Assembly (NCBI GenBank): GCA_041598975.1
Contig: JBFHXM010000001.1
Coordinates: 1 to 31,139, forward strand
Direction: 5' to 3'
Length of the DNA stretch: 31,139 nucleotides
DNA from: Candidatus Woesearchaeota archaeon
GTDB taxonomy: Archaea > Nanobdellota > Nanobdellia > Woesearchaeales > UBA583
A model generated the notes under the pieces. The model had not been told where the DNA came from, searched no databases, and was given only the letters and a program-made list of their open reading frames with translations. Below are positions 6,112 through 29,178 of the stretch, piece by piece; within the stretch, counting starts at the first letter, position 1, and each line of letters begins with the position of its first letter. A program made the translations under genes and the position numbers.

Positions 6112-6132
6112 CTTGAAAGAAACTTGTTTATT

Positions 6133-7181: not shown

Positions 7182-8861
7182 ATGGAGAAAAAAACAGAAG
7201 CAATTTTAAGAGGAATTTTGATTTTTATAGGAGTTTTGTTTTTTGTTTTTGCTTTTTATTTTACTTATGTCCAAGTTTCTGAGATACTGGATATGATTGT
7301 CAATAGTTCTAATCCTATTGAAGTTTTGTTCTCGTCTTTTGAGACTTTTAGTATCTTTTTACCGGCATTGTTTTTGTTTTCTGGGCTTGTTATTTACAAA
7401 GTTGGAAGGCATTGGGATAATTTTTTCAAATATTTGGCTAATTCGTTCATAAGTTTGGGCTTGTTTTTTTTGTTTATGTGTTTTATGATTTTCCCTATGA
7501 ACAATTCTGCTTCTGAGATTGCAGATTCTTTGCAGCCGACAATTGATAGCGTGATTGTGACTGTTGTTGATGATTTGATTGAAAGCCAGCTTGGCGGGGA
7601 GCCTTACAATGGAAATATAGATTTGACATATGGTGAAAGTGATGAAGTAAGGGAATTTTTTGTAAAGGATCTTTCGGTGTCGGATGCAGAATATTTGGCA
7701 GGCGTTTTTAGTGTTGATTTTCAAGGAGAGGAAGCTTTGACTTTTTCTAAGATAATGATTTCACTTATATACGAAGAGATGTTGAAAACCGATTCTCGGG
7801 CTTTGGATATTCCACTTCCTGTGAGCGAATTTGAAAGCATGTTGGAGTCTCAAATGATTGGGTCTGATTTAGGTCTTTTGGATGTTTCTTTGCTTGGAGA
7901 GATTTATCCTATTAATGATGAGGCTTATTTGAAGCTTTTGATTTCAACAAATGTGGTTTCTAAGAGGGTTAATCCTTCTTCTTTGTCTGAGAGCGATGTT
8001 AATCTTATTTGGAACAAACTTCGTTTAGGAGAAGATATTTCTAAAGAGACTAAGAAGAATATTGTTGTTGGTTTTTTGTCCATGGTCAGTTCCGAGATGT
8101 CCAATCAGCCTTATGTACAAGGTATTAGTTTGCCTCTTGCATCTATTTCCAGTTTGCTTCCTATTGAGCTTAGAAACATGGTCCAAAATGGAATTTTTTC
8201 AGAGAATATGTCTAAACGTGTTGAAGCTTTAGGGGTTGTGAGGAGGGATTGCAAGGACGAGAGCATTCTGCGAGGTCCTATTTCTGTTCAGATGTGCGAA
8301 GGGATAGTTATTACAGAGTATGACACATTCATGGCTTTTGCAATTTCTAGTAATGCTTCTGAAGATATGAATATGAGCATGAGCCCTGCTCTTTTGGATT
8401 TTTTTGACAAGATTTCGACTACTGAAAAGATTGAAAAGGAAGTTTATGACATGACTAGTGGTTGGGAAAAGTTTTTTTACATTTATCTGATTTTTATGAT
8501 TGTTGCTTTGGTTTCATATTACCTTCATTTTAAGTTGTTTGACAGAGAGGTTGTTTTACTTCATATTCCATATTATGTTGCCAAGAAAAATCTGTTTTTG
8601 TATTTGCCAACTTTTGTTTTAGCTTTAGGAATTTATTTTGTTTTGGCGAGCGGAATTTTGGTAAGTTTTGTTATTGATTTATTTGGATTGGGTGATGGCT
8701 ATTTTAATTCTGAATTTTTTATGAATCTTGCAATTTATAAGGTTATTATGGACATTAACTGGCAGTTTTTGGTTTTGGCCATAGTTTATCTTGTTTTGAG
8801 TATTGGCGTTTATGCGTTGTTTTATTTTTTGCTAAGCAGAAAGCTGAAAAATTATGGGTAA
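7182..8861 (+). CDS. multi-pass membrane protein with a large acidic soluble domain
   Basis: About 3 hydrophobic segments at each end flanking a ~330-aa D/E/S-rich region. Confidence 0.8.
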   Translation: MEKKTEAILRGILIFIGVLFFVFAFYFTYVQVSEILDMIVNSSNPIEVLFSSFETFSIFLPALFLFSGLVIYKVGRHWDNFFKYLANSFISLGLFFLFMCFMIFPMNNSASEIADSLQPTIDSVIVTVVDDLIESQLGGEPYNGNIDLTYGESDEVREFFVKDLSVSDAEYLAGVFSVDFQGEEALTFSKIMISLIYEEMLKTDSRALDIPLPVSEFESMLESQMIGSDLGLLDVSLLGEIYPINDEAYLKLLISTNVVSKRVNPSSLSESDVNLIWNKLRLGEDISKETKKNIVVGFLSMVSSEMSNQPYVQGISLPLASISSLLPIELRNMVQNGIFSENMSKRVEALGVVRRDCKDESILRGPISVQMCEGIVITEYDTFMAFAISSNASEDMNMSMSPALLDFFDKISTTEKIEKEVYDMTSGWEKFFYIYLIFMIVALVSYYLHFKLFDREVVLLHIPYYVAKKNLFLYLPTFVLALGIYFVLASGILVSFVIDLFGLGDGYFNSEFFMNLAIYKVIMDINWQFLVLAIVYLVLSIGVYALFYFLLSRKLKNYG

Positions 8862-14976: not shown

Positions 14977-15021
14977 ATATTCTAATAATTTTTTGTAAGT
15001 TTTATCTAAAACTTATGTTTG

Positions 15022-15591
15022 ATGATGGGTAGAGATAAAAAAGCTTGTTTTTTGAATTTTAATTTTTCTAATAATAGAAAAGCTCAGTCAGGTATGGAGT
15101 TCTTGGCTATTTTTGCGATTGGTTTTTCCTTAATTGTTATTTTTACCGGAATCTTTTTTACGTATTTTACTGGTGAGAAGGAAGCTATTGACAAGAAGCA
15201 TATTGAAAAAATCGGTCATGAGATTATTTCTAATGTTGAAAAAATATATTTTTTAGGTGAGGAGAACAGAGTTACTATCGATACCAAGTTTCCGAAAGGG
15301 ATTGTAGATTTGAGAATTCATCATGTTTACAATTATACTTTACCTGTCACGGGAGAGAATGTGTCTTATGATTATTTGAATATATCTTATGTTTCTGATG
15401 GTGATGTTTATTCGATGCTTTTTGAGCCAAGAGAGATGTATATAAGGTTTAATTGCACGATTTGTTATCATAATACCACCCATAATTTTTCATATTATAA
15501 TGAGTCTTTGCATGGTGAAGGTTTTAGGAGAATCAGATTTGAGTCTATGGGCGATTGGGTGGCTGTCGATTTCATGCAACTCATCAAATAA
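15022..15591 (+). CDS. archaeal type IV pilin-like protein (class III signal peptide), likely minor pilin
   Basis: RKA/QSGMEFLAIFAIGFSLIVIF: Q+1, E+5, hydrophobic helix; exact start uncertain (15022 or 15025). Confidence 0.82.
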   Translation: MMGRDKKACFLNFNFSNNRKAQSGMEFLAIFAIGFSLIVIFTGIFFTYFTGEKEAIDKKHIEKIGHEIISNVEKIYFLGEENRVTIDTKFPKGIVDLRIHHVYNYTLPVTGENVSYDYLNISYVSDGDVYSMLFEPREMYIRFNCTICYHNTTHNFSYYNESLHGEGFRRIRFESMGDWVAVDFMQLIK

Positions 15592-15598
15592 AATATAC

Positions 15599-15680
15599 TT
15601 TTTCCCTATTTCTGTGTTATTTAAAAGATAGATGTAGCGCTGCTACTATCTATTTTTAAATGCCTTGAAATAGAAAAAAA
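15599..15680 (+). repeat. long-hairpin intergenic repeat, copy 1
   Basis: TTTAAAAG-A-TAGAT-GTAGC-gct-GCTAC-T-ATCTA-TTTTTAAA inner stem inside CTATTTC/GAAATAG outer stem; aligns with 28164 and 28959. Confidence 0.85.
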
Positions 15681-15790
15681 TTATTATTTTATTTTGGGCA
15701 GATTGGATTTGTTGGTTAATTAAGAAGGAGTATGCGGGGAGAAGTTTGTTTTTGTTTGATTTGTGGGCAAGGCAAAAATTGATTGTGTTT

Positions 15791-16708
15791 TTACTTTTCG
15801 AGGTCGAGGTATGTACTCCATGCAGCTATGCTTCCTGCTGATGCTGCCACAATTGCTTGTTTGAATGTAAAATCTGTCACATCTCCTATTGCATAAAGGT
15901 TTTTGATGTTTGTTCGCATTTCTCTTGTAACTATTATTTCACCTTTTTCGTTTAGTTCTGCACCTAATTGTTTTGCAAGTTCTGAGTTTGGTATTTGTCC
16001 GATTTCTACAAATACTCCTTGAATAGGGAATTCGTTTAAGTTGTTGTAAGGTTTGTCAAATACAACAGATTTTACTATTTGTTCGCCTTTTATTTCTGTT
16101 ATGTTTGTGTTGTATATAATTTCAATATTTTCTTTCTTTAATGCTCTGTCAAGGTTGATAGGTTCTGCTCTTAGTTTGTTTCCTCTGTATACAATGTATA
16201 CTTTCTTACAGTGTTCGCTTAACATTAAAGCTTCTTTTGTTGCACTATCACTTCCTCCTACTATTATTACTTCTTTGTTTCTAAAGAACATACCATCACA
16301 AGTTGCACAGTAGCTTACTCCTTTTCCATCGAATTCTTTTTCTCCGGAGATATTTAGTTTTCTTCTTTCTGAACCTGTTGCAAGAATTACTGCTTTTGCT
16401 TTGTATGTTTGTTTTGAGTTTAGAGTTTGCATTTCAAATAAATCTTTTTCTTTTTTTATTTTATTAACAATGTCATCTACAATTTCTATGTTGTATTTTT
16501 TAGCATGTTCTTCTATTTTTCCCATTAATTCTGGTCCTGTTAGTGAGTCGTATCCTGGATAGTTTTCTATAAGGTGTGTTTTTGTTACAAGTCCGCCTCT
16601 TTCTTTTACTATTACTAATGTTTTGAGGTTGTATCTTGCAGCATAAATTGCAGCACTAAGTCCGCCGGGCCCACCCCCAATAATTATTAAATCGTAGTTT
16701 TCGGTCAT
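15791..16708 (-). CDS. trxB: thioredoxin-disulfide reductase
   Basis: GGGPGG FAD motif, IENYPG, GVSYCATCDG redox motif, VGGSDSA NADPH motif, AIGDV. Confidence 0.95.
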   Translation of the reverse strand: MTENYDLIIIGGGPGGLSAAIYAARYNLKTLVIVKERGGLVTKTHLIENYPGYDSLTGPELMGKIEEHAKKYNIEIVDDIVNKIKKEKDLFEMQTLNSKQTYKAKAVILATGSERRKLNISGEKEFDGKGVSYCATCDGMFFRNKEVIIVGGSDSATKEALMLSEHCKKVYIVYRGNKLRAEPINLDRALKKENIEIIYNTNITEIKGEQIVKSVVFDKPYNNLNEFPIQGVFVEIGQIPNSELAKQLGAELNEKGEIIVTREMRTNIKNLYAIGDVTDFTFKQAIVAASAGSIAAWSTYLDLEK

Positions 16709-16798
16709 ATTTATTATATATTTATTTTATTTTATTAAGTTTTGGTTTTATTTTTAATGTAATAACATTTTTAAGTATGTTGTTGTTTGTTTGTTAGT

Positions 16799-17473
16799 AT
16801 GAATAGGTATTTAAGGCAAGAAATTTTGGATTTCATCCCGGAGAATTTTTCTGAGAAAGTTAAAGGTAAGAAAATAGTTTTGATTGGGTGCGGAGGAGTT
16901 GGAAGTGTTTTTGCTGAGCTTTTAGTTAGAGGGGGTTTTTTGAATTTAGTTCTTATAGATTTTGATAAGGTGGAGATTACTAATTTGAATAGGCAGATAT
17001 ATTTTGAGAATGACTTGGGTAAGTTTAAAGCTGAGAGCTTGAAGAAACATTTGCTTGAAATTGATAAGAATGTTAATATTGATGTTATTTTGGAGGAGAT
17101 TGATGAGGTTAATATTGGTGATTTTTCTAAGGATTCAGATTTAATTATAGATGCTAGTGATAATTTTAAGATAAGGAATTTGATTAATGATTATTGTGTT
17201 CAAAATGGAAAGGATTGGCTTTATAATGGTGCTGTTAGGACTGAAGTTGTTAGTTGTTTGTTTTATGGTAAAAATAATTTGTTTGATAAAGTGTTTAGTT
17301 CGGGTGTTGTTGAGCAAAAAGCAAGGGATGTTGGAATTTTGCCTTCGACAACTTTTTTGGCAGCTAGTTTAGGTTTTAATCAGGTTATGAAGTATTTTTT
17401 AGATAATAGGGAAAATAAATTGGTAAAAATTAATTTGTGGACAAATAAAGTATTTGAAGTTAAGATTAAATGA
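16799..17473 (+). CDS. ThiF/MoeB/HesA-family (E1-like) adenylyltransferase lacking Zn and catalytic cysteines
   Basis: RYLRQ, GCGGVG, DFDKVEITNLNRQ, DASDN; start moved to the ATG at 16799. Confidence 0.88.
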   Translation: MNRYLRQEILDFIPENFSEKVKGKKIVLIGCGGVGSVFAELLVRGGFLNLVLIDFDKVEITNLNRQIYFENDLGKFKAESLKKHLLEIDKNVNIDVILEEIDEVNIGDFSKDSDLIIDASDNFKIRNLINDYCVQNGKDWLYNGAVRTEVVSCLFYGKNNLFDKVFSSGVVEQKARDVGILPSTTFLAASLGFNQVMKYFLDNRENKLVKINLWTNKVFEVKIK

Positions 17474-17541
17474 TTTTGAAAAAGAAAACATTTAAAATAA
17501 GAAATTAATTATTATAATTTAGAAGTTGTATTTTTCTTTTT

Positions 17542-17614
17542 GGGGACGTAGTATAACTTGGCAGAATAGCTGGCTCCAGACCAGCAGATGGGGGTTCAAA
17601 TCCTTCCGTCCTCA
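17542..17614 (+). tRNA. tRNA-Trp (CCA), intronless, CCA end not encoded
   Basis: Acceptor GGGGACG/CGTCCTC, anticodon arm GCTGG-CTCCAGA-CCAGC, T arm GGGGG-TTCAAAT-CCTTC, discriminator A. Confidence 0.93.
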
Positions 17615-17711
17615 CTTGTAAACAAATTCGGATTACATGATTTTAACCTTTATGTGGTCACTCGAATAAATTCTTGTTCCCACATTTTGCGAGACTTCGC
17701 TTACGCAAAAC

Positions 17712-17734
17712 TTCAAATCTTTCCGCCCTCACTT
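17712..17734 (+). repeat. direct repeat of the tRNA-Trp 3' end (att-like)
   Basis: TTCAAATCTTTCCGCCCTCACTT vs 17595-17617 TTCAAATCCTTCCGTCCTCACTT, 21/23 identical. Confidence 0.85.
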
Positions 17735-17773
17735 TTGTTTTTAATAATATTTATTAATGATTTGTTATTAGTG

Positions 17774-18385
17774 ATGTATATGATTGAAAAGGATTTAAAA
17801 CTTTCTGGAGTGTTTGTAGGAGTTATTGGACCTACTTATTCAGGTAAAACTACTTATACCTATAGGTTTCTTGATAAACATCCTGAAGCTTTTTATCCAG
17901 TTTCTTGTACTACTCGGAAACCGAGGGCTAATGAGGTTCATGGCAAAGATTATTATTTTTTATCTGAAGGCGAATTCCATGATAAATTTGAAAATCATGA
18001 ATTTTTAGAATGGGCAGTTGTTCATGGCGAATATTATGGAACTTTGAAAAATCCAGTTTTTGAATTTTTGAGTAAAGGAAAATTGGGTTTGACTGAGATT
18101 GATTATCAGGGTTTGTTTGAGATGAGAGAACATTTGCCTTCAGAAAATTTGAAATCTGTTTTTTTGATGCCGCCACCTGAAGAATTTATAATTCAGAAAT
18201 TAAAGGAAAGAGATTTAAATATTTCAAGGCACGAGATTAAAAAAAGGCTTGATTCTTTGAAAAAAGAGGTCGAGGTTGCAGAAAAATTTGATGTAAGGCT
18301 TAGGATGTTTGATAATGACCCTGATACCTCTTATTCTATTTTTGAACATATTATTTTGGGTTTTATGAAATCTAAAAATATTTAA
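17774..18385 (+). CDS. gmk: guanylate kinase (bacterial/eukaryotic type)
   Basis: P-loop GPTYSGKTT, GMP-binding signature TTRKPRANEVHGKDYYF, EFLEWAVVHGEYYGT, EIDYQG, FLMPP; start at ATG 17774 or 17780, not the track's 17588. Confidence 0.9.
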   Translation: MYMIEKDLKLSGVFVGVIGPTYSGKTTYTYRFLDKHPEAFYPVSCTTRKPRANEVHGKDYYFLSEGEFHDKFENHEFLEWAVVHGEYYGTLKNPVFEFLSKGKLGLTEIDYQGLFEMREHLPSENLKSVFLMPPPEEFIIQKLKERDLNISRHEIKKRLDSLKKEVEVAEKFDVRLRMFDNDPDTSYSIFEHIILGFMKSKNI

Positions 18386-18407
18386 ATGATAATGTTTTTG
18401 AGTTTTT

Positions 18408-19022
18408 ATGGTTGGGCAAAGATATGCTACTTTAGTGGGTCCGGTTTTTAAATTTAATCCTGATGGTGAGAGAAATTTAATGAATTTTAATTATGGTTTT
18501 TTTAATTTTGCCCCTATTAGCAAAGAGCAGTTTGGCACTATAGATGATAAAATCTGGGATTTTCTTCGTTCTATGGAAAGAGAAAAAGGATGGCCAGTTA
18601 CTTTGTCTAAACCTTCTCTAAGTTCTTCTAGAATGAACTATATTTTAGAAATCCCACAAAAAATGCATGATGGCAGAGATGATATTAATATGACTTTGTA
18701 TAAATTTGAAATTTTTGGGAGGAATAATGGTTATTATAGATTTTATAATTCTTTTATGGATTCTGTTTTTAATTCTTATTATTTTGAACAATTTGTGGCA
18801 AGCATTATTAAATTTCATAGGGAAATTTTTGATATTGATTTGGAATCAAATGGTAATTTTACTATTAATTTTGAAAATATGAGACAGCAGGTTGAAAGTT
18901 TTGATGAGCTTTATCAGAAAGAATTGGAAGAGGAAACTGAGAAGTATTTTAATGAAATGTGGGTTAAGGGAGTTGTTTCTGGTTTAAGTTTTCTTCGAAA
19001 TGATGCTGGAAATAATTCTTAA
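18408..19022 (+). CDS. hypothetical protein, paralog of 19077-19712
   Basis: ORF; shares blocks LMxFNxxF, IxDF, NxGxxRFxxSF, VFxSxxFxQ, IIxxHxxIFxIxL with the neighbour. Confidence 0.78.
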   Translation: MVGQRYATLVGPVFKFNPDGERNLMNFNYGFFNFAPISKEQFGTIDDKIWDFLRSMEREKGWPVTLSKPSLSSSRMNYILEIPQKMHDGRDDINMTLYKFEIFGRNNGYYRFYNSFMDSVFNSYYFEQFVASIIKFHREIFDIDLESNGNFTINFENMRQQVESFDELYQKELEEETEKYFNEMWVKGVVSGLSFLRNDAGNNS

Positions 19023-19076
19023 TTATATTTTTATTAGAATCATTAGTTATTTAAATAACGATTATTTACTTTTTTT

Positions 19077-19712
19077 ATGTTATTAAAAGATTATTTAATT
19101 ATAAGTCCACCTATCTTAAGTTATAATCCTCAAAATCAATTAATGGATTTTAATTTTTCTTTTAAAAATAATTCTAGTTTTGATGAAAAGAAATATTTGG
19201 AAATTGTTAATAGAATTAGAGATTTTCATGATTTTCTGGAAGAGAAATCTTTTTTCAAATCCAAAGTCACGAGGGAGAAAAATCCTGATTTAGATGAAAT
19301 CATTTTTAAATTTCTAGTTCCAAGATTTGATGATTTGAATACATTGGATCAAGTTTTGAATAGTTTTTATATTGTTGAAGAAAATAGGGGCATTTTTAGG
19401 TTTGTTAGTTCTTTTAAGTATGAAGTTTTTGATTCTCAGGATTTTAATCAAAATTTTTCTGAAATTATTCAAGCTCATAAAACAATTTTTCGCATTAATT
19501 TGTTTGATTTTCCTGATTTTGTTTATAGCGCAGTTGATATTGGAAATTACATTCTTGCAGATGAATGTTTGTCTGAAGAAGAATACGAATTAATGCAAAG
19601 AGTTAGATCTTGGGAATCCTGGCTTAAAATTTCTTCAGAAGTGGACGATATAGCAAAAAAGGCAGGGGCAAAATCTAACATACATTTCCCTTTAGATCCT
19701 TATCAATTTTGA
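19077..19712 (+). CDS. hypothetical protein, paralog of 18408-19022
   Basis: ORF preceded by a TATA-like TTTAAATA (19050-19057); same shared blocks. Confidence 0.78.
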   Translation: MLLKDYLIISPPILSYNPQNQLMDFNFSFKNNSSFDEKKYLEIVNRIRDFHDFLEEKSFFKSKVTREKNPDLDEIIFKFLVPRFDDLNTLDQVLNSFYIVEENRGIFRFVSSFKYEVFDSQDFNQNFSEIIQAHKTIFRINLFDFPDFVYSAVDIGNYILADECLSEEEYELMQRVRSWESWLKISSEVDDIAKKAGAKSNIHFPLDPYQF

Positions 19713-21723
19713 TTATTTTATTTTTGATTTTAATTTGTTTATCGTTTAAATAGATGTTTTTCCCATCACTTATCATTTGGATTTTGAAGAAGTCATCAAT
19801 TTTTATTTGGCTTTTGTTGTTTGCTGTTTCTTTTTCACATTCTAGGTTTGTTCCTATTTCGGCGTCTGTTTCTATTACACCTACCTTTTTGTTTTCATCT
19901 TCTACTGCAAGTACCATACCTTCGGACATTTCTCCTCTGAGTTTTGCAGGTTTAAGGTTTGCAACCACTATTACTTTTTTGTTTAACAACTCTTCTTCTT
20001 TGTAGTGATCTTTAAGTCCTGAAATTATTTGTCTAGGTTTTTCTTCTCCAATATCGATTTCTTCTATGTATAGCTTTTCTGCTTCAGGGTGTTTTTTAAT
20101 TGAGATTATTTTTCCAACTTTCAGGTTTAAATCAGAGAATGTTATTTCTCTTGATTTTTTTTCTTGTTGTTCTTTTTGTTTTTCTTCTTTTTTAGGTTCT
20201 GGTTGTTTTTGTTGAGGGGTTTGTTCTTCTGTTATTTTCTGAAATAGGTTTTCTTTTTTTCCTATTTTGTGTCCTTTTTTTACATTTTCAAATTTTTTGA
20301 AGTTTCCTTTTTCAAAGTTGTATTGTTCTCTTATTTTTTGAGCTTTTTCTGGCATGAAGCAGTCGATGTAGTCAGCGAACATTTTGATTGCGAATATTAA
20401 TGTATTGATGATTGCTTTTAGTCTTTTCTTGTCTGTTTGCTTCCAAGGCTCTACTTTGTTTATGTATGCATTTGTGTTTCTTATTGCTGTCCATAGTATG
20501 TCTATTGCCTGGTTGAATTTTAATTGCTGCATTGCAGAGTTGAATTCTTTTAAAATATTTAATTTTTTCATTAGTTCTGCTTCGTCTTCTGTTAGAGCTT
20601 CTTGAACTGGCACTTTTCCTTCGAAGTATTTTGTTGTCATTGTATGGACTCTAGATACAAGGTTACCCAGGTCGTTGTTTAGTTCGTTGTTTATTTTTTC
20701 ATTGAATACTTTTTGTGAGAAATCCAGATCGTCTCCAAATCCTCCTACACTCATTACGAAATACCTGAATTCGTCTGTTCCGTATTTTTCTGCGATTTCT
20801 ATTGGGTCAAGTGTGTTTCCCATGGATTTTCCCATTTTCTCTCCTTCAACTGTCCACCATCCGTGCGCATACACTTTTTTAGGGGGCTTCATTTCTACAC
20901 TCATTAAGAATGCAGGCCAGTATACCTTGTGGAACCACATTATATCTTTTCCTACTACATGCACATCTGCTGGCCAAAAGTCTTTCTTTTCATTTATTTC
21001 AAGGCCTGATACATAGTTGAATAATGCATCGAACCATACATAGGTTACATGTGAATCGTCGAATGGAAATTCTATTCCCCATTCTAGTGTTTCTTTATTT
21101 CTTGAAATTGAGATGTCATCAAGACCTTCTTTTACTCTGTTTATTGTTTCTTGTGCTTTTGATTTTGGAGATAGAAAATCAGGATTTTCTTCATAAAATT
21201 TAAGTAGCTTTTTTTCGTATTTTGATAATTTGAAGAAATAGTTTTCTTCTTCCATTGTTTTCACTTCTCTTTTGTGGTCAGGACATTTTTTTCCGTCAAT
21301 AAGTTCGTCTTCTTTATAGTATCTTTCACAATCCACACAATACAATCCTGAATATTTTGCTTTGTAGATGTCTCCATTTTGCAGGGATTTTGATAACATG
21401 TCTTGCACGAAGCTTTTGTGTTTGTCGTCTGTTGTTCTTATGAAGTAATTGTGTGAGATATTTAGTTTTTCTAATTGTTCTTTGAAAAATGGGATAAGTT
21501 CGTCCACAAATTCTTGTGGAGTTTTGTTTGCTTCCTCGGCTTTATTTGCAACTTTTTGTCCGTGCTCATCTGTTCCAGTTTGGAAGAATACCTCTTTACC
21601 AATATTTCTGTTCCATCTTGCAAGAACGTCACAAGCAATAGACGTGTATGCATGCCCTAAATGTGGTTTTCCTGATGCATAATAAATCGGCGTTGTAATG
21701 TAGAATGTGTTTTCTTTTTTCAT
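19675..21723 (-). CDS. metG: methionine--tRNA ligase, bacterial MetRS1 type, with C-terminal Trbp111-like tRNA-binding domain
   Basis: FYITTPIYY, HLGH, GTDEHGQK, single knuckle YCVDC...CPDH, YVWFDAL, GKDI, KMGKS; C-terminal NLKPAKLRGEMSEGM; start moved to the ATG at 21723. Confidence 0.96.
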   Translation of the reverse strand: MKKENTFYITTPIYYASGKPHLGHAYTSIACDVLARWNRNIGKEVFFQTGTDEHGQKVANKAEEANKTPQEFVDELIPFFKEQLEKLNISHNYFIRTTDDKHKSFVQDMLSKSLQNGDIYKAKYSGLYCVDCERYYKEDELIDGKKCPDHKREVKTMEEENYFFKLSKYEKKLLKFYEENPDFLSPKSKAQETINRVKEGLDDISISRNKETLEWGIEFPFDDSHVTYVWFDALFNYVSGLEINEKKDFWPADVHVVGKDIMWFHKVYWPAFLMSVEMKPPKKVYAHGWWTVEGEKMGKSMGNTLDPIEIAEKYGTDEFRYFVMSVGGFGDDLDFSQKVFNEKINNELNNDLGNLVSRVHTMTTKYFEGKVPVQEALTEDEAELMKKLNILKEFNSAMQQLKFNQAIDILWTAIRNTNAYINKVEPWKQTDKKRLKAIINTLIFAIKMFADYIDCFMPEKAQKIREQYNFEKGNFKKFENVKKGHKIGKKENLFQKITEEQTPQQKQPEPKKEEKQKEQQEKKSREITFSDLNLKVGKIISIKKHPEAEKLYIEEIDIGEEKPRQIISGLKDHYKEEELLNKKVIVVANLKPAKLRGEMSEGMVLAVEDENKKVGVIETDAEIGTNLECEKETANNKSQIKIDDFFKIQMISDGKNIYLNDKQIKIKNKIIKIDKDLKGNVC

Positions 21724-21805
21724 ATATATGTAGAAATGTATCTTTTTTATAAAATTATTTGTTGTAATTATAGTGATAGTCTGTTGTTTTTTGATTTTAT
21801 TTGAT

Positions 21806-22378
21806 TTAAAAATATAGTCTATTATGTTTAGCAAATAGAAAATCAGCATATTTTTCAATTTCAAAAATTTCATCTATATTTTCAAACTGTGATTCTTGTG
21901 GATTTGTTAAAAAGAATTCATCTTTGTCTCCAAGGTTTCTGTAAGAAAATGCACCTAATATGTTTGGATATTTTAAATTATAACCTAAAGCTCTGAGATG
22001 TTCAAGGCTTTTTTTAAGTTCTGGGTTTTCTTTTTGACTTATATTAACTGACATTAAACCATAATTGTTATCTTGAATTAAATAATACACCCTATTATTT
22101 TTTTTATCAAATCCTACTACAACTGCAAATTTTGGAGATTGAATTGATTTTGGATCAAAAACATGTGTTAAAAATCCTATTTCAAAATGTGCTTTTTCTA
22201 TCGGATTGACTTTAAGTATTATGTCATGGTTTAGGGATTCATTTTCTATTAGTACTTTATTTTCTGAAGATAATTCTTCTAAGTATTCTTTTGCTCCTTG
22301 AATTAATTGAGTTAAGTTTTTGCTTTTTTTTATTCTATCTCTAAGTTTGAAGGAGTGATTTAAAAATGTGGGTTGCAT
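21806..22378 (-). CDS. hypothetical protein
   Basis: 190-aa ORF, ATG start 5 nt after the aIF6 stop; no family recognised. Confidence 0.7.
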   Translation of the reverse strand: MQPTFLNHSFKLRDRIKKSKNLTQLIQGAKEYLEELSSENKVLIENESLNHDIILKVNPIEKAHFEIGFLTHVFDPKSIQSPKFAVVVGFDKKNNRVYYLIQDNNYGLMSVNISQKENPELKKSLEHLRALGYNLKYPNILGAFSYRNLGDKDEFFLTNPQESQFENIDEIFEIEKYADFLFAKHNRLYF

Positions 22379-22383
22379 TTTAT

Positions 22384-23070
22384 TTATAGATAATCTAGGT
22401 TTTCAACTATGTTTTGGATTTCGATTGTGGAGCACATTGAACCAAGTATTATTCCGTATTTGTTCCCTACTACTCCTGAAGACATATAATTGCTTCCTGA
22501 GTTTACAGTACCTAGTCCTGCGATTTTGTCAAGTATTTCTTTTACTTCATTTTCTTGGTATTCTTGTGATAGGAAATAGTGGTTGTTTAGAAATATGCAA
22601 GTTGAACCTATTGAGTTGAAATTGGTGTTTTTTATTCTTATTATTTTGAATTTGTTGTTTGTTTGTGTTTTTATTTCGTTTTCGAATCTTTTTGAATAGT
22701 TAGGGTTGATTAGCATTTCTTCATCCCCGATGCAGATGTTGTTTCCGTATGTGTTTTGTATGTCGCTTAGAGTTATTATTTTTATGTTGTGCCTTTTTGC
22801 GATTTTGTCAAATTCTTTTAATTCATAGTCGTACATTTGCGGAATAAATAAGTATTCGTCGTTTCCGTTAACGAAAATTCCAATTAGTTCTGTTCCAAGT
22901 ACTGTGAGATTGTAGACAGGTACACCGAGGGTTTTTTCTATCTCTTTTTGCTTTTTTTCAGAGATTTCAGGTCCAATGAGGCAGAATTTGTTATTTGCAA
23001 ACATGTATATTCCGATGTTCGGATTTCCTTCAAAATCCATCATGCTAATTCTTTTTTCAGTTTTTGTCAT
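22384..23070 (-). CDS. eif6: translation initiation factor 6 (aIF6)
   Basis: FEGNPNIGIYMFANNKFCL, LTVLGTELIGIF, GNNI, GTVNSGSNYMSSGVVGN...GS; start uncertain (23070 chosen). Confidence 0.92.
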   Translation of the reverse strand: MTKTEKRISMMDFEGNPNIGIYMFANNKFCLIGPEISEKKQKEIEKTLGVPVYNLTVLGTELIGIFVNGNDEYLFIPQMYDYELKEFDKIAKRHNIKIITLSDIQNTYGNNICIGDEEMLINPNYSKRFENEIKTQTNNKFKIIRIKNTNFNSIGSTCIFLNNHYFLSQEYQENEVKEILDKIAGLGTVNSGSNYMSSGVVGNKYGIILGSMCSTIEIQNIVENLDYL

Positions 23071-23227
23071 AGTTAGAAGATAATACATTTCCATTTATAT
23101 TTATTGGTATTTTTTGTCTTGTTGTTTATTTAATATTTAGAAACATTTAAAAACGATTTTGCATTCGATAAAGTAGGTCACAACGATAATTGTGTGAAAA
23201 ATAAATTCAAAGCAAAATTAATTAAAA

Positions 23228-23332
23228 ATGAAAAGAAGTTCAAGAAGATGGAAAAAGAAAGGCCAGATGAGATGGAAATGGCAGAAAAAGATTATGAGAG
23301 CTAGAAAGAGAAAAGACAGAAATAACAGATAA
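23228..23332 (+). CDS. rpl41e: ribosomal protein eL41 (L41e/eS32), 34 aa, absent from the ORF track
   Basis: Manual translation MKRSSRRWKKKGQMRWKWQKKIMRARKRKDRNNR*; carries the archaeal L41e pattern KRSSRRWKKKGxMRWKW. Confidence 0.9.
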   Translation: MKRSSRRWKKKGQMRWKWQKKIMRARKRKDRNNR

Positions 23333-23348
23333 AATTTTTAATTTAATT

Positions 23349-23903
23349 ATGTCAAAGATAATTTTAAATAAACTTAATTCTCTTCAGTTAAACAAAAGTT
23401 CTAAAAAAAACTGGAATATTACTTGGGTTCAGGGGGTTTTCTTATCTAATTTGGTGGATATTAAAAAGCCAAAGAATATCTTGGAGATAGGAACTTCTAA
23501 TGGTTTTTCTACTTTGTGGATTGCAAAAAGTCTTGATGAAGATGCTTTTATTGATACCATAGAGATTAATTCTGAGAGATTTGAGGAGGCAAAGAAGGTT
23601 TTTAATCAGTGTAGTTTGAAGAATGTTAATCCTATTTTTGGAGATGTTTTTGAGATTTTGCCTACTTTGGGAAAGAAGTATGATTTTGTGTTTATGGATG
23701 CTAAGCAGGAATTTTATTTGGATTTGGTAAAGTTGATTGAAAAGCTTGAATTGTTTGGCGAGGATTTTACTTTTGTTGTTGATAATGTTACTAATCATGA
23801 TAATATGGGGGAGTTTGTGAAGTATATGGAGAAAAATTATACTTGCGAAGTTGTTGATATTGGTGGCGGGTTTTTGATTGCTAAGGCTAGGAAAGGTTTT
23901 TAA
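23349..23903 (+). CDS. class I SAM-dependent O-methyltransferase (COMT/YrrM-TrmR-like)
   Basis: ILEIGTSNGFSTLWIA, TIEINSER, GDV, YDFVFMDAKQ, VVDNV. Confidence 0.88.
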   Translation: MSKIILNKLNSLQLNKSSKKNWNITWVQGVFLSNLVDIKKPKNILEIGTSNGFSTLWIAKSLDEDAFIDTIEINSERFEEAKKVFNQCSLKNVNPIFGDVFEILPTLGKKYDFVFMDAKQEFYLDLVKLIEKLELFGEDFTFVVDNVTNHDNMGEFVKYMEKNYTCEVVDIGGGFLIAKARKGF

Positions 23904-24063
23904 TAGGTTTTAGTTTTCTTTTTATTGAGAATTTCGAAAAACTTTGTTTTTTCTCAGCTTCTCAGAAGATAGTATTGTAAAACTTCAATCTTTTGCGTTT
24001 TCACAGCATTATTATTTGTGAAATTCACAAAATATTGTGTTTTCCAAAACTCTCTATTATAAC

Positions 24064-24157
24064 GGTCCTGTGGTCTAGCCTGGATGCAATCACTGCGTCC
24101 TTTGGACTACGTTCGGCACACTTTGAGCAAGCTCAAAGAGTATGTCAATAGCCTCCT
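24064..24157 (+). pseudogene. interrupted 5'-half copy of tRNA-Arg(CCT)
   Basis: 24063-24085 matches 24177-24199 (22/23); 24142-24157 matches 24200-24215 (15/16); a 56-nt insert lies between; no 3' half. Confidence 0.8.
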
Positions 24158-24177
24158 TGGAGGCATCTTTCCTTTAC

Positions 24178-24252
24178 GGTCCTGTGGTCTAGTCTGGATA
24201 TGACAATAGCCTCCTAAGCTGTGGATCGGGGGTTCGAATCCCCCCGGGATCG
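24178..24252 (+). tRNA. tRNA-Arg (CCT), CCA end not encoded
   Basis: Acceptor GGTCCTG/CGGGATC, D stem GTCT/TGAC with A20, anticodon arm ATAGC-CTCCTAA-GCTGT, T arm GGGGG-TTCGAAT-CCCCC, discriminator G. Confidence 0.95.
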
Positions 24253-24279
24253 TTTTTTGTTCTTTGGTTAAACTAAATA

Positions 24280-24287
24280 TTTATAAA
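24280..24287 (+). promoter_or_regulatory. putative TATA box
   Basis: TTTATAAA about 22 nt upstream of the ATG at 24309. Confidence 0.5.
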
Positions 24288-24308
24288 AGTTTTATTTTTT
24301 AATATATT

Positions 24309-24545
24309 ATGTCTAATTTGTTTGAGATATTTTTGATATCATTGTTGTTAATAGGTTTTTTATTCCTTTTTCTATATTTCATTTATCTTTTTAAAAAAGG
24401 TATTGTGCCAGTTACAAAATTTGGCCCTATAATTACAAGGGCTAAAAATCCTTTTGTTTTTTGGTTTATATGGTTATTTTATTTTATTTTTATAACAGTA
24501 GTTATTTGTTCTCTAATATATTTTTTAATTTCACTTTTTACATAA
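24309..24545 (+). CDS. small two-TM membrane protein
   Basis: 78 aa, two hydrophobic stretches around a KKGIVPVTKFGP loop; TATA at a typical distance. Confidence 0.65.
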   Translation: MSNLFEIFLISLLLIGFLFLFLYFIYLFKKGIVPVTKFGPIITRAKNPFVFWFIWLFYFIFITVVICSLIYFLISLFT

Positions 24546-24576
24546 GTTTTTTATTTGTGGGATTTTTTGTTTTATT

Positions 24577-25152
24577 ATGAATAAGTTGGATTTGTCTTTT
24601 TTTGAAGGAAAGTGTACGCTTGATGTTGCAAAAGAGTTGTTAGGGAAAGTGCTGGTTTTTGAGAGTTCAAAAGGTGTTATTAAAGGAGTAATCAATGAAA
24701 CAGAAGCATACACAGAAGAGGATGAGTCGTGTCATGCTTTTGGCGGCAGAAAGACAGCAAGGAATGAAGTGATGTTTAACAGGGCAGGGCATTTGTATGT
24801 GTACTTTACTTACGGCATGTATCATTGTTGTAACATTGTGACTGGTTTGGAAGGCAAGGGTGAAGCAGTTTTGATTAGAAGTGTGATTCCAATTGAAGGG
24901 AAAGATATTATGATTGAAAATAGGAAAGGCAATACTAAGAATGTTGCAGATGGTCCTGCAAAGTTGTGTTTGGCGTATGGTTTTGATAAGTTGCATAATG
25001 GAATAGATTTATTGGATGAGAAATCAAAGATTTATATTGAAGATAGTGATTACGTGCCTTTGGATGTTAAGCAGACTAATAGAATTGGTATTTCTAAAGC
25101 AGTTCATCTTGATTGGAGGTTTGTTGCAAGTAAGTTTTCAGGTTTGAAGTAA
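24577..25152 (+). CDS. mpg: 3-methyladenine DNA glycosylase (AAG/MPG family)
   Basis: VAKELLGKVLV, INETEAY, SCHAF, YVYFTYGMYHCCN, AVLIRS, GPAKLC, RIGIS. Confidence 0.94.
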   Translation: MNKLDLSFFEGKCTLDVAKELLGKVLVFESSKGVIKGVINETEAYTEEDESCHAFGGRKTARNEVMFNRAGHLYVYFTYGMYHCCNIVTGLEGKGEAVLIRSVIPIEGKDIMIENRKGNTKNVADGPAKLCLAYGFDKLHNGIDLLDEKSKIYIEDSDYVPLDVKQTNRIGISKAVHLDWRFVASKFSGLK

Positions 25153-25201
25153 TACATAATGTTTTTAAAGTATTATTTTCTTGTTATAATTATAGTAAAA
25201 A

Positions 25202-25540
25202 ATGTATGAGGATAGGCTGGTTGTTGGTTTGATTGAAAAGGTTAAATTTGATAATGGTGAGGAGTTTTTAGCTAAGGTTGATACAGGAGCTGATTCCAGT
25301 TCTATTGATGAGGAGGTTTTTGAGAAGCTAGGTAAACCGAAAATCGTTGCTTACAAGTATGTGAAGTCTGCTTTGGGCAGGCACAGAAGGCCTATTGTCA
25401 GGCTTAAAGTTGTTTTTCAAGATATGGAATTTGAAGAAAAGTTTACTATTTCTGATCGTGGAAATTTGAGTTATAAAGTATTGATTGGCAAGGATATTTT
25501 GAGAAAAGAGGGTTTTTTGGTTGATCCTAGAAAAAATTGA
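25202..25540 (+). CDS. retropepsin-like protease of the RimK-associated (RimB-like) family
   Basis: AKVDTGADSSSID aspartyl-protease-like motif, RRPIV, FTISDR, VLIGKDIL; directly upstream of rimK. Confidence 0.82.
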   Translation: MYEDRLVVGLIEKVKFDNGEEFLAKVDTGADSSSIDEEVFEKLGKPKIVAYKYVKSALGRHRRPIVRLKVVFQDMEFEEKFTISDRGNLSYKVLIGKDILRKEGFLVDPRKN

Positions 25541-25586
25541 GGGGGCAAAGTTATTTAAATTAGTGCAAATAAAAATTATTTAAAAA

Positions 25587-26666
25587 ATGGGTTTGAAGTT
25601 TGGTCTTATAAGTTTGGGAAGTGTTTCATCAAAGATGGTTTTGAAAGAAGCAGAAAAGTATTTTGATGAGGCAGACCATATTGATTTGAGGAAGATTGAG
25701 ATTAGAATTGACAAGGAAACAAAGGTTCTTTATGACGGAAAGCCTCTTAAAAATTATGATTGCCTTTACATGAAAGGAAGTTTCAGATATTCTGGGCTTT
25801 TGTATGGACTTTCTGAAATTTACAAGGATAAGTGCTTTGTACCTATTGACCCTAGTTCCCATATTATTGCACATAATAAATTTATGACGCATTTATATTT
25901 TTCACAAAATAAAAATTTGAAGATGCCTGATACTTATTTTGCAGCGAAGGTTTCAGAGACGAAGGAGTTTTTGAAGACTCTTAATTATCCTATTATTTTG
26001 AAGTTTCCTTCTGGAACTCATGGGAAAGGAGTTATTTTTGCAGAGAGTTATTCAAGCGCGACTTCTATGGTGGATGCTCTTGATGTTTTCAAGCAGCCGG
26101 TTATTATTCAGGATTATGTAAATGTTAAAAGTGATATCCGAGTTATTGTTGCAGGAGATAAAGTTGTTGGGTCCATGAGGAGGATTGCAAAAGGTGACGA
26201 GGTTAGGGCTAATGCTCATTTGGGAGGAGATGCTGAACCTTATATTGTTACACCAACAATCAAGCAAATGTCTGTTGAGGCGGCAAAGAAGATTAAGGCG
26301 AGTATTTGTGCGATAGATTTGATTGAGAGCGATTATGGTCCTCAGATACTTGAAGTTAACACTTCTCCAGGTTTGCAAAAAATTACGGAGGTTACTAAGA
26401 AGAATATTGCAGATGAGATTGCAAAGTATTTGTTTGATGAGACGAAAAAGCTTAAAGAAGGCAAGGATAAAATCAAGACTAAGGATGTTATGACTGATTT
26501 GGGGATTGCAGAGATTGGAGCAAGAGAGTTTGAAGTTGAACTTGACGTTAGAAATGGAAAGATTATCATGCCCGAGTTTGCTTATAAAATGTCTGGACTT
26601 AAGGAAGGTGAGGATGTTATTTATAGAATTTCCAAGAATAAAATTGAGATTGTTAAGAACAATTAG
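25587..26666 (+). CDS. rimK: RimK-type ATP-grasp alpha-L-glutamate ligase with a C-terminal AbrB-like extension
   Basis: YPIILKFPSGTHGKGV, IIQDYV, DIRVIV, RANAHLGG, IDL...GPQILEVNTSPGL, closer to RimK than to LysX. Confidence 0.85.
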   Translation: MGLKFGLISLGSVSSKMVLKEAEKYFDEADHIDLRKIEIRIDKETKVLYDGKPLKNYDCLYMKGSFRYSGLLYGLSEIYKDKCFVPIDPSSHIIAHNKFMTHLYFSQNKNLKMPDTYFAAKVSETKEFLKTLNYPIILKFPSGTHGKGVIFAESYSSATSMVDALDVFKQPVIIQDYVNVKSDIRVIVAGDKVVGSMRRIAKGDEVRANAHLGGDAEPYIVTPTIKQMSVEAAKKIKASICAIDLIESDYGPQILEVNTSPGLQKITEVTKKNIADEIAKYLFDETKKLKEGKDKIKTKDVMTDLGIAEIGAREFEVELDVRNGKIIMPEFAYKMSGLKEGEDVIYRISKNKIEIVKNN

Positions 26667-26696
26667 GTTTATAATTGGGAACTTGTTAGTAAATTT

Positions 26697-26954
26697 ATGG
26701 GAAAGGTTAAAGATTTAGCAGAGATTTTTGTTCCAGGTTTAGTAAATTATGCTTTGCTTATTGGTTTGACTTATGGTATTAATAATGTTTCTTTTCAAGT
26801 TCAAGAGCGTTTATTTGGTTTAGAGAGTTCTATTTTACGAGCAGAGAGGATTTTAAAACATGGTGAACTGAACCCTTATAATCCTGCTAGAGCTTTAGTT
26901 TTGGGTGTTGAGGTAAGTGCAACAAATTATTTGATTAGTAAGGATAAATTGTAA
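26697..26954 (+). CDS. small hypothetical protein
   Basis: 85-aa ATG ORF, co-oriented, one hydrophobic stretch. Confidence 0.5.
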   Translation: MGKVKDLAEIFVPGLVNYALLIGLTYGINNVSFQVQERLFGLESSILRAERILKHGELNPYNPARALVLGVEVSATNYLISKDKL

Positions 26955-27002
26955 TGTTTTTTATCCAAGTTTTTAATTTTTTTCCGATAGTTGAACAAAA
27001 AA

Positions 27003-27010
27003 TTTATAAA
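27003..27010 (+). promoter_or_regulatory. putative TATA box upstream of the structured radA leader
   Basis: TTTATAAA about 24 nt before the first helix of the structured region. Confidence 0.5.
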
Positions 27011-27033
27011 TATGTTTCATTATAATCTTTCTT

Positions 27034-27149
27034 ATCTAAGAATTTAGCCTTAGATGGTTTTTCCAGTTTTGCATTGATTTGCCTTGGCGCCTTTTCTGTC
27101 TTGCCGAAAAACTGGTAAAAGGGCTAAAAAACATAATTAATGTTTTAGC
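27034..27149 (+). ncRNA. candidate structured leader or ncRNA upstream of radA
   Basis: Helices ATCTAAG/CTTAGAT and CCAGTTTT/AAAACTGG; GCTAAA(A) 27123-27129 has two alternative partners; relatively GC-rich core. Confidence 0.45.
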
Positions 27150-27193
27150 AGAAGTTGTAGTAAAACAGTGTTTTTATTACGGAGATATTTAAA

Positions 27194-28153
27194 ATGACAG
27201 ATAAAAAAAAAGAATATACTATCGAGGATTTACCAGGTGTTGGACCTTCAACTGCTGAGAAATTGAGGGCTGCAGGTGTTGATACATTGCTTGCTATTGC
27301 TGTTGCTTCCATTGGTGTTTTAACAGAGGAGGCAGGTGTGAGTGAGAGCGTTGCAAGAAAAATGATTCAAGCTGCAAGAGATATGCTTGACATGGGTTTT
27401 GAGACTGGAGCGACTATTTTAGAAAAAAGACAAAATGTTAAAAAGATTAGTTCTTCAAGTGAAGGATTTGATGAGATTATGGGCGGTGGTTTTGAAACAG
27501 GTGCGATTACTGAACTTTATGGGGAGTTTGGTAGTGGTAAAACACAGGTTGCTCATCAGTTAGCAGTTAATGTACAGATTCCTGAAGAAGATGGAGGTCT
27601 TGGCGGCAAGGTTATTTACATTGATACTGAAAATACTTTCAGGCCGGAGAGAATTTTACAGATGTGCAAGAGAGCAGGCATGGATTCTAATGAGGTTTTG
27701 AAGAATATTAAGATTGCAAGAGCTTATAATTCAGATCACCAAATGCTTCTTTCTGAGAAGGCAGAAGATTTGCTTAAAACAGGCGAGTATAAATTGTTAA
27801 TTGTGGATTCTCTTACTGCGCATTTCAGAGCAGAGTTTATTGGAAGGGGAACACTTTCAGAGAGACAGCAAAAGTTGAACAAACACATGCATCAGTTACT
27901 TAAAGTTGCTGATATGTACAATTGCTGTGTGATTGTGACTAATCAGGTTATGGCTAAACCTAATGTGATGTTTGGGGACCCTACTCAAGCTATTGGTGGA
28001 CATATTGTTGGGCACAGTTCCACTTTTAGGATTTATTTGAGGAAAGGAAAAAAAGGTTCAAGGGTTGCAAAGCTTGTTGACAGTCCTAATTTACCGGAGC
28101 TTGATTGCATGTTTTTTGTGAATGAGGGTGGAATTTCCGATAAGGAAGAGTAA
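27194..28153 (+). CDS. radA: DNA repair and recombination protein RadA
   Basis: N-terminal Hh[10 protein letters not shown], Walker [42 protein letters not shown]; SD-like GGAGA at 27181. Confidence 0.97.
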
Positions 28154-28163
28154 TAATTTGCAC

Positions 28164-28291
28164 TTTTTTCTTATTTCTTCGTTACTTAAAGGACAGATAT
28201 AACTTGCTATTATCTGCCTTTAAGTGCCTTACATGAAAAATCAAAGATTTTTGGCGTATTGTGAATAAATTCACAACAAACTAAGAAAAAA
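28164..28291 (+). repeat. long-hairpin intergenic repeat, copy 2, with palindromic insert in the 3' outer arm
   Basis: CTTAAAGG-A-CAGAT...T-ATCTG-CCTTTAAG inner stem followed by TGCCTT; outer TTTTTTCTTA/TAAGAAAAAA. Confidence 0.85.
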
Positions 28292-28352
28292 TTACTAAAT
28301 TATTTATTTTGTAATAGAAATGTTTAAATAAAGAAAAAAATAGATTTCTTTT

Positions 28353-28631
28353 ATGGATAAAGAAAGAATTATATCTGCAACAAAAATCGGTTCTATTGTT
28401 GGAGGTCTTGTAGGTGTAACTTCTGCAGTAATTGTTTCTATAAAAAGTCCAGAATATGCACAAAGTTTAGATTATATTATTTCTTGTACTAAACAAATTC
28501 CTATAACTGAATTTAAAGGAGCAGTTGCAGGAACAGTACTTTCTATAAGTGCTCAATTTAAAGAAAATTATGTTGATAAAATGTATATATTTAATAAACC
28601 TTCATCAGTTAATTGTAATTATTACAAATAA
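28353..28631 (+). CDS. small hypothetical membrane protein (Gly-zipper-like)
   Basis: 92-aa ATG ORF with GSIVGGLVG and GAVAG hydrophobic segments. Confidence 0.55.
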   Translation: MDKERIISATKIGSIVGGLVGVTSAVIVSIKSPEYAQSLDYIISCTKQIPITEFKGAVAGTVLSISAQFKENYVDKMYIFNKPSSVNCNYYK

Positions 28632-28712
28632 ATATTTTTCTTTATATAGGATTGATTGTTATTTGATTAGGTAACATTATTTTTTAAATGAAAGATTAGA
28701 GTATTAATTAAG

Positions 28713-28958
28713 ATGGAGATGGTTCAAGATTTTGTTGATAAAAAAGAAAAGTTAGCTGATTTGCTTGAAGAGTATATGGCTAATCCTGATATTGAAAAGG
28801 AACTTGTAGATTTGGTCATTGTTTTTGCAGAAGATGAGGATTTTAAAGACAAGGCATTGTTTAAGAGTATTTTTTCTGATGTTATGGAATATTTGCATGA
28901 TCTTTCCAGAAAAGAGATTAAGCAGAGAGTTTTAATGATTAGAAGCTATCTAGATTAA
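28713..28958 (+). CDS. small acidic helical hypothetical protein
   Basis: 81-aa ATG ORF, TATA-like TTTAAATG about 23 nt upstream. Confidence 0.7.
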   Translation: MEMVQDFVDKKEKLADLLEEYMANPDIEKELVDLVIVFAEDEDFKDKALFKSIFSDVMEYLHDLSRKEIKQRVLMIRSYLD

Positions 28959-29093
28959 TTTTTTCTTATTTCTTCGTTATTTTCAGGATGAATGTAGCGC
29001 TGCTAATGACAATCAAAGATTCTCAGAAAATTATTTCTCATAAATTCGAAAGAATTTACTATTCACCTAAAAATGCCTTGAAATAATTAAAAA
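28959..29093 (+). repeat. long-hairpin intergenic repeat, copy 3, with a 53-nt insert in the apical stem
   Basis: TTTTCAGG-A-TGAAT-GTAGCGCTGCTA...C-T-ATTCA-CCTAAAAA, then TGCCTTGAAATA; outer TTATTTC/GAAATAA. Confidence 0.85.
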
Positions 29094-29178
29094 TTATTCG
29101 AAATTATTATGTTATAATTTGTTTTTTCTTTTTGTAGTAGGTATAAAAGTTTTAATTATCTGAAGTTTTGAAATTATT

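Follow-up and report, generated by a model that had tools for sequence, protein, structure and literature searches.

A structured hairpin repeat behind stop codons in a genus of Woesearchaeales, homologous to the centre of miniature transposable elements of marine bacteria

The window analysed is a stretch of 31,139 nt from a Candidatus Woesearchaeota archaeon of the order Woesearchaeales (GenBank assembly GCA_041598975.1, contig JBFHXM010000001.1, positions 1 to 31,139), which is contig C1 of the draft genome designated G000 (1.09 Mb, 153 contigs, 31.7% G+C, 83% completeness). Three hairpin elements, each behind a + strand open reading frame (ORF), had been described in it by an earlier note made from the sequence alone, and all three were found as described. 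Their common 5' word, TTTTCYYTATTTCTKYGTTA, matches at these three places only within the window, and the starts of copies 1, 2 and 3 lie at 4, 9 and -2 nt, respectively, from the stops of the same-strand ORFs, near which the note had placed them. The length of ~80 nt given there had to be revised to ~115 nt, with two outer helices extending back to the stop codon. The elements are copies of a repeat that is constrained in structure, non-coding, dispersed, patchy in one archaeal genus and homologous to the centre of bacterial miniature inverted-repeat transposable elements (MITEs), and the archaeal copies are locked in sense orientation to stop codons.

Copy 1 (15586-15700, + strand) is the compact 115-nt form of the rod. 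It was scored at 108 bits by R1, a covariance model built from 14 compact archaeal copies, and its minimum free energy (MFE) was -28.8 kcal/mol (z -4.9). According to the consensus structure it is composed of basal helices 1-3, an asymmetric internal loop, a bulged inner stem and the apical helix GTAGC/GCTAC. The TAA stop (15589-15591, +; alignment column 4) of the ORF at 15019-15591 is located within the 5' strand of basal helix 1. This ORF was assigned to no Pfam family, so that its earlier naming as a pilin gene is left without Pfam support. The internal loop of copy 1 reads TGTGTT on the 5' side (15613-15618; family consensus TKCGTT) and TGCCTT on the 3' side (15661-15666), and the latter word also occurs in bacterial copies.

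Copy 2 (28151-28304, + strand; R1 score 59.5 bits) stands right behind radA (27194-28153, + strand; identity from Pfam Rad51), the stop codon of which (28151-28153) forms the first three bases of the element. The span found by the covariance model was 28151-28267, and with an extra two-hairpin branch the fold reaches ~28304; over 28151-28312 the MFE was -38.8 (z -6.1). The branch corresponds to insert B (28230-28277, +), an optional module behind TGCCTT that folds into two additional hairpins and recurs in the C29 and C31 copies, its exact 25-mer being limited to 3 copies. Copy 3 (28945-29113, + strand; R1 score 63 bits) lies behind an 81-aa ORF (28713-28958), and the stop of this ORF (28956-28958, +; alignment column 13) is inside the element. 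The 3' arm of copy 3 carries insert A (29006-29058, +), an optional module of ~53 nt directly behind the apical helix, and the fold of this copy was weaker against shuffled sequences (z -2.6) than those of copies 1 and 2. By blastn against the genome, the copy on contig C38 carries insert A without change and that on contig C19 at 87% identity; inserts A and B thus occur in three copies each in G000. The search of the window with Rfam returned only two tRNAs.

The consensus structure was obtained by running RNAalifold on a MAFFT alignment of 14 copies and comprises 38 pairs. Helix 1 (9 pairs) and helix 2 (a T-run on the 5' strand and an A-run on the 3' strand) are A/T-rich basal helices, and helix 3 is short, with 3 or more pairs. 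The internal loop is asymmetric (5' TKCGTT, 3' GCCTY; unpaired part TKCGT and CCTY, respectively) and is closed by an invariant T.G. The GTT of its 5' side and the G, C and T of its 3' side are invariant in the 14 copies, and the T35.G141 pair was retained in 64/65 rows of a larger alignment. The inner stem is variable and has two single-base bulges, an A on the 5' arm and a T on the 3' arm; both bulges, first noticed in the window, are present in most copies of G000. The apical helix is RTAGC/GCTAY in the family consensus and GTAGC/GCTAC in the consensus of the 14 copies.

The base-pair covariation claimed for the three window copies held and grew with copy number. Double-sided change was found in 33/38 pairs in the 14 copies by using an independent MAFFT alignment, and in 36/38 pairs in the larger set of 65 rows from five archaeal genomes, which was aligned to the model and, as a model-fitted alignment, favours structure. 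Standard pairs occupied 90.3% of the cells in the 65 rows, compared with 64.9% after the partners were shuffled and at most 49% after they were slid by 1-3 columns, and none of 500 shuffles reached any observed measure. The basal helices were paired in 87-93% of the cells. The triplet beside the loop (pairs 27-29 with 150-152) varies freely across the 65 rows (UA/AU/GC; CG/UA), the covarying forms being TTC/GAA, AAC/GTT, AAT/ATT and TGC/GCA.

Assignment of the folding strand by wobble pairs and by folding energy was abandoned, as the two tests disagree. With the invariant T.G left out, G.U-type cells numbered 90 and A.C-type cells 67, and the statement that G.T pairs favour the + strand could not be upheld; the reverse complement was predicted to be more stable in 51/63 copies, because the mismatches on the + strand are mostly pyrimidine-pyrimidine. 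R1 scored the G000 copies at 60-113 bits on one strand, and no score above 39 bits was obtained from the opposite one; the element is therefore clearly asymmetric. A resemblance by eye to short words of 5S rRNA and 4.5S RNA was also dropped, the Rfam models giving no match.

Fuzzy matching, nhmmer and R1 agreed on 20 copies on 17 contigs of G000, all of them single and dispersed, with a unit of ~115 nt without ORF. The proposed family of three copies was thereby enlarged to 20 in this genome, with more in four congeners and others in bacteria; the covariance-model search that the earlier note had recommended gave many further copies, and covariation was strong in the larger alignment. The repeat family is absent from Rfam, in agreement with the view that it belongs to no known RNA family: searches in gathering and E-value modes gave chance matches only, the best E value for 13 archaeal copies was 0.6, and the bacterial copies gave no match. 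Literature searches returned no description of this repeat family.

The copies in G000 have a mosaic make-up. A core and insert A are common to window copy 3 and the C38 copy, which differ in their outer helices, the two copies on contig C46 have common outer helices with different cores, and one of the latter (C46b, 8475-8570) has its core in common with the C19 copy. 'Empty' outer hairpins, which might have served as pre-existing targets for a mobile core, were looked for and none was found. No usable filled or empty site was obtained from the contigs of three DNA runs of a marine metagenome study, in which a loose end at 29005 derives from another repeat copy.

Among 60 genomes of the same order, matches were confined to the same genus, where 4/19 congeners carry the element (G015 with 33-35 copies, G002 with 10, G010 with 1 and G012 with 1 to 5 weak ones). 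The genus total is ~65 copies, with the element present in 5/20 species and no copy in 15/20. In a RadA tree (single gene, weak support) the carriers are scattered, each beside a non-carrier. The cross-domain covariance model R2 gave no copy in 150 high-quality genomes from 119 genera of the phylum. The insertion sites are mostly non-orthologous (2 of ~18 common to carrier genomes), and the radA site is empty in 17 congeners. In G015 (contig C12, locus L090), a partial second 3' half (containing CAAATGTCTTGAACTAGC) was seen directly behind a full copy, and tandem or broken copies therefore exist. The G002 and G015 records CAYGPK01 and CAZLRR01 (loci L127, L136, L138 and L140) were deposited as 'uncultured Methanosarcinales archaeon', a label which may be imprecise.

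Outside the archaea, an exact 21-base pattern derived from two conserved words matched 35 loci in a species-representative genome collection, including G002, G015 and many marine bacteria. R1, built from archaeal copies alone, gave the bacterial copies 30-59 bits. Thalassotalea marina KCTC 42731 (4.9-Mb genome) yielded 20 copies by R1 with E down to 3e-8, and this cultured carrier of ~20-27 copies makes experiments possible. Among the other whole genomes searched by R1, 4 copies were found in Thalassotalea sp. G2M2-11, 3 in a Saprospiraceae metagenome-assembled genome (MAG) and a single copy in each of two further MAGs, one of Thiotrichaceae and one of Planktotalea. Among 151 genomes of the order to which T. 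marina belongs, 29 had 1-21 copies by R2.

The bacterial relatives are classical MITEs. The rod of Thalassotalea occupies the centre of a 195-bp unit with the ends ACCTCAG and CTGAGGT, flanked by target-site duplications that are perfect in 18/22 cases (6-bp TAnnTA in 14, 7-bp in 4), and a copy of this unit with 89% identity is located on a Pseudoalteromonas xiamenensis replicon. A second bacterial family has TACCAAT/ATTGGTA ends, TTA or TAA duplications and the core at the apex, its copies being 65-97% alike within genomes. The end sequences differ among the lineages (ACCTCAGC... and TACCAAT... in bacteria, TRAAGTTTG... in archaea). The bacterial terminal inverted repeats and target duplications indicate DDE-type cut-and-paste rather than HUH chemistry. 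A stop codon is often part of the TAnnTA target, and for this reason many Thalassotalea copies lie directly beside one. Two single copies were also recorded: a TACCAAT-type copy (G349, contig C97, 3328-3634) is split at the apex by ~157 nt, as a nested insertion into the hairpin tip, and in Colwellia maritima a weak-scoring copy with an exact pattern match (L143, 1369-1480, - strand) follows the 6S RNA gene at a distance of ~176 nt and on the strand of that gene.

The positions of the archaeal copies relative to genes were estimated with a crude, orientation-blind ORF map. The left neighbour gene was on the strand of the element in all 63 copies having one, by which the orientation noticed in the window was extended to the whole archaeal set, and a stop codon fell within -39 to +11 nt of the first column of the model in 57/63. 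The right neighbour was in tandem in 36/64, convergent in 25/64 and divergent in 0/64; no copy in a 5' region or a divergent spacer was found among the 64 archaeal copies. The preceding genes are unrelated housekeeping genes (RadA, aIF5B, tRNA-splicing endonuclease EndA, L30, S24e, CDC48, TFS and dihydroorotate dehydrogenase), which also mark the host as an archaeon. The host stop codon is mostly inside the 5' strand of helix 1 at a variable offset from the conserved core (-14 to +13), and at least 2 of its 3 bases are paired with the far 3' strand in 40/58 minimum-energy folds. In one G015 subfamily, 8/8 copies open with a TGA or TAA serving as the host stop, and the far-strand partner shifts in step (TGA with TCA, TAA with TTA).

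T-runs on the coding strand are part of this arrangement. A run of at least 4 T was found just past the stop, in the first 28 nt, in 55/64 copies, and one of at least 5 T in 42/64, the T5 run being located 10-15 nt past the stop. The last 25 nt contain a T-run of at least 4 in 41/64 copies. A T-run followed by GG behind the rod was present in 26/64 copies, compared with 11% behind other genes; this T-run with GG(TT) at the 3' flank (e.g. window 15690-15700) may belong to the end of the element or to the next promoter.

The hairpins probably represent a mobile repeat that is non-autonomous and MITE-like, its core being under structural constraint and common to both domains. Three properties of MITEs were found in it: the copies are short, non-coding, many and dispersed (20 on 17 contigs); terminal inverted repeats are present, the whole archaeal unit being palindromic and the bacterial repeats clear; and related genomes differ by presence or absence. 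The proposal of a non-autonomous mobile element made in the earlier note is retained in this form, and its specification as an HUH, REP or PATE-like substrate is given up, the Y1 gene being found in G000 only and the bacterial relatives being classical MITEs. By description, the repeat is like ERIC/IRU, the Correia elements of Neisseria and RUP, which are also short, non-coding, dispersed intergenic repeats; as in these, transcription together with the neighbour gene allows the entire unit to form a long hairpin, the copy number is highly variable between related genomes, and the bacterial members have terminal inverted repeats and duplications. Unlike these, it has a conserved centre (loop and paired stems) and lineage-specific ends, one core is found in at least two shells (with 6-7-bp and 3-bp duplications) as well as in an archaeal genus, and the archaeal copies are all sense at stop codons, without consistent duplications.

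Since the family is common to archaea and marine bacteria, it has most likely been passed between the domains, a likely case of cross-domain transfer of a non-coding mobile element. The repeat would have been brought into the archaeal genus by transfer from bacteria, and it would be, or have been, mobile there. The copies start at the stop and run in the direction of the gene, and each should therefore be transcribed as the start of the 3' untranslated region (UTR). Copies may have survived where the rod, which has its T5 run 10-15 nt past the stop, works as or resembles a 3'-end hairpin or terminator module that is useful or does no harm, and insertions elsewhere or in the opposite orientation would have been removed or never made.

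A 3'-UTR or terminator hairpin role would fit both the anatomy and the orientation lock. The likeness to archaeal oligo-T and bacterial intrinsic terminators lies in the T-run 10-15 nt past the stop, in the A-run/T-run pair flanking the hairpin and in the second T-run behind the rod in about two thirds of the copies; the difference lies in the hairpin, which measures ~50 bp in the rod and is A/T-rich with a conserved loop. The lock offers a natural test of the influence of a hairpin on archaeal 3'-end formation, which is thought to need T-runs only.

A number of observations weigh against the preferred reading of a MITE-like mobile repeat with a tolerated or useful 3'-end role. Classical MITEs conserve their ends and not their centre, the reverse of this repeat, which has a conserved centre and ends that vary from lineage to lineage. 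The mosaic copies are as compatible with recombination between copies as with transposition. No consistent target-site duplications were found in the archaeal copies, the matches being at the chance level in AT-rich DNA, with one 10-bp candidate at locus L033. A cognate autonomous element with the same ends was not found: the bacterial genomes searched yielded neither paired solo ends at a distance of 1-3 kb nor a neighbour gene that recurs. G015, with its 33-35 copies, gave no match to Y1_Tnp, RVT_1, IS110, DDE_3 or DDE_Tnp_1. The orientation to genes is mixed in Thalassotalea (roughly 17 co-oriented and 9 not), and because the bacterial copies are not locked, the lock is a property of the archaeal hosts that the element alone does not explain; such complete sense orientation beside stop codons (63/63) is unusual for a MITE. 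As to a terminator role, archaeal termination needs no hairpin, and no enrichment of hairpins or structure behind genes generally was found in G000.

Candidate transposition partners of HUH, TnpB, reverse transcriptase, IS110, IS630 and IS4/IS5 types were considered, and none goes with the carriers. No match to reverse transcriptase (RVT_1), IS110 or DDE_3 was obtained in G000, G002 or G015, and no TnpB domain reached the Pfam cut-off. The absence of a transposase is not proven by these searches, because the carrier genomes are only 83-93% complete.

Five points weigh against a plain MITE, namely conservation of the centre, variability of the ends, the mosaic make-up of the copies, and the failure to find either consistent archaeal duplications or a transposase; they leave room for a structure-defined mobile module of a new kind or for a primary RNA role. 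Under the former, the rod (~100-115 nt) would itself be the conserved unit, a module defined by its structure, common to Bacteria and Archaea and carried in several unrelated MITE shells. In the archaeal genus it would multiply by itself in a strand-specific manner (linked to single-stranded DNA or to the transcript) by which it is put in sense orientation at the stop codons of genes, and it would serve there as a portable 3'-end or terminator module. This is considered unlikely; if true, the rod would be a new kind of mobile cis-element and not a degenerate transposon. Conservation of the centre and not the ends from marine bacteria to a small-genome archaeon, together with the covariation, suggests that the hairpin serves the element or the host.

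Service to the host is the basis of the second alternative, by which the rod would be a host-selected 3'-UTR RNA element whose conserved loop binds a protein that controls translation termination or the stability or 3'-end formation of the mRNA. Duplication and gene conversion would have carried it from one gene end to another, and the bacterial MITEs would be no more than vehicles of the module. The complete sense orientation and the adjacency to stop codons are in its favour, as are the conserved loop with freely covarying stems (as in protein-binding RNAs), the single invariant T.G, a standard pair on the + strand alone, the pairing of the stop codon in the basal helix in 40/58 folds, the mosaic copies, which suggest conversion, and the failure to find a transposase. 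The distribution points the other way, since a needed host element would be expected to be kept more evenly than in 5/20 species with 1 to 35 copies scattered on the tree; the preceding genes are unrelated housekeeping genes, the sites are rarely orthologous, the bacterial rods stand in either orientation to genes, and neither the wobble pairs nor the folding energies mark out the + strand. A host-selected RNA element is regarded as unlikely.

Action of an HUH (Y1) enzyme on the rod as a single-stranded DNA substrate with strand-specific insertion, as in REP/RAYT or IS200/IS605-derived PATEs, is improbable. Conservation of structure rather than sequence, with bulges and an asymmetric loop, would suit such an enzyme, and so would the fact that no target duplications are seen in the archaeal copies and the one Y1_Tnp gene in G000. 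PF01797 (Y1_Tnp) matched in G000 only (contig C113) and not in G002, G015, G010 or G012, and the hairpins flanking this gene are unrelated to the rod; the earlier suggestion to look for a Y1 or RAYT gene thus led to no partner. No TnpB domain is above the cut-off, HUH elements do not make the terminal inverted repeats and target duplications seen in the bacterial relatives, and the offset of the stop codon from the core (-14 to +13) leaves no fixed junction. On contig C113 (3210 bases), the Y1 transposase ORF (1948-2634) adjoins a DDE_Tnp_1 ORF (323-1756), and this pair is probably a separate insertion sequence.

REP/BIME elements with RAYT transposases resemble the rod in being palindromes outside genes and at their ends, with compensatory stem changes and recognition as structure. 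REPs are 20-40 nt long, stand in both orientations, are clustered and are accompanied by a RAYT gene; the rod measures ~115 nt and is single, and the sole Y1 gene is missing from the richest carriers. The IS200/IS605-derived PATEs are likewise non-autonomous and hairpin-bearing, are known in archaea and make no target duplication. PATEs have two different end hairpins and are dependent on TnpA(Y1) or TnpB, while the rod is a single long hairpin with which neither TnpA(Y1) nor TnpB goes.

Identity with integron attC sites was also considered and rejected, the plan being similar, the AAC/GTT rule failing and the context being wrong. The similarity lies in the plan, where a spacer that is unpaired on both strands separates a basal helix from a second one bearing extrahelical bases and the tip is variable, and the site sits just past an ORF in sense orientation with its structure kept more than its sequence. 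The AAC (R'') and GTT (R') triplets beside the spacer are not kept in the rod, its conserved bases being within the spacer, and its copies are single on 17 contigs behind housekeeping genes, not in cassette arrays, no search for an integrase having been made.

It is very improbable that each copy is a free-standing small RNA gene, with a TATA-like box ~26 nt upstream of the invariant CGTT and an end at the T-run behind the rod. A/T-rich, TATA-like words such as TTTTTATAC do occur upstream of CGTT in several copies, and a T-run of at least 4 closes 41/64 copies. The supposed promoter, which is the 5' strand of helices 1-3, covaries with the 3' strand (87-94% pairing), and this makes sense only if both helix strands lie on one molecule; such a gene would also have no need to abut a stop codon or to match the orientation of the upstream gene in 63/63 cases. 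Chance resemblance or a recent local duplication, suggested by two of the three window copies being only ~0.8 kb apart, has a negligible probability against 20 copies on 17 contigs, ~65 in the genus, relatives in bacteria and covariation far above the controls.

Other structured sequences were recorded in the course of the analysis. A second short module, AAAAATC-RAA-GATTTTT followed by GGCACCAAAGGTTTGAAAAA, was present in G000 on contigs C6 (~9637, - strand), C77 (~4640) and C9 (behind the gene at 5306-6364); the AAAAATC-RAA-GATTTTT module also adjoins elements at loci L107 and L024 and resembles the first hairpin of insert B. Near-identical structured stretches of 70 nt starting with ATCAAAAATCGCTGACTCATGC were found behind unrelated genes on contigs C47 (gene 5649-6749, - strand) and C4 (gene 15275-15592) of G000, with an MFE of about -17 to -18. 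The gene ahead of one copy of the rod (G000 contig C48, 2651-5260, - strand) contains an intein with a LAGLIDADG domain.

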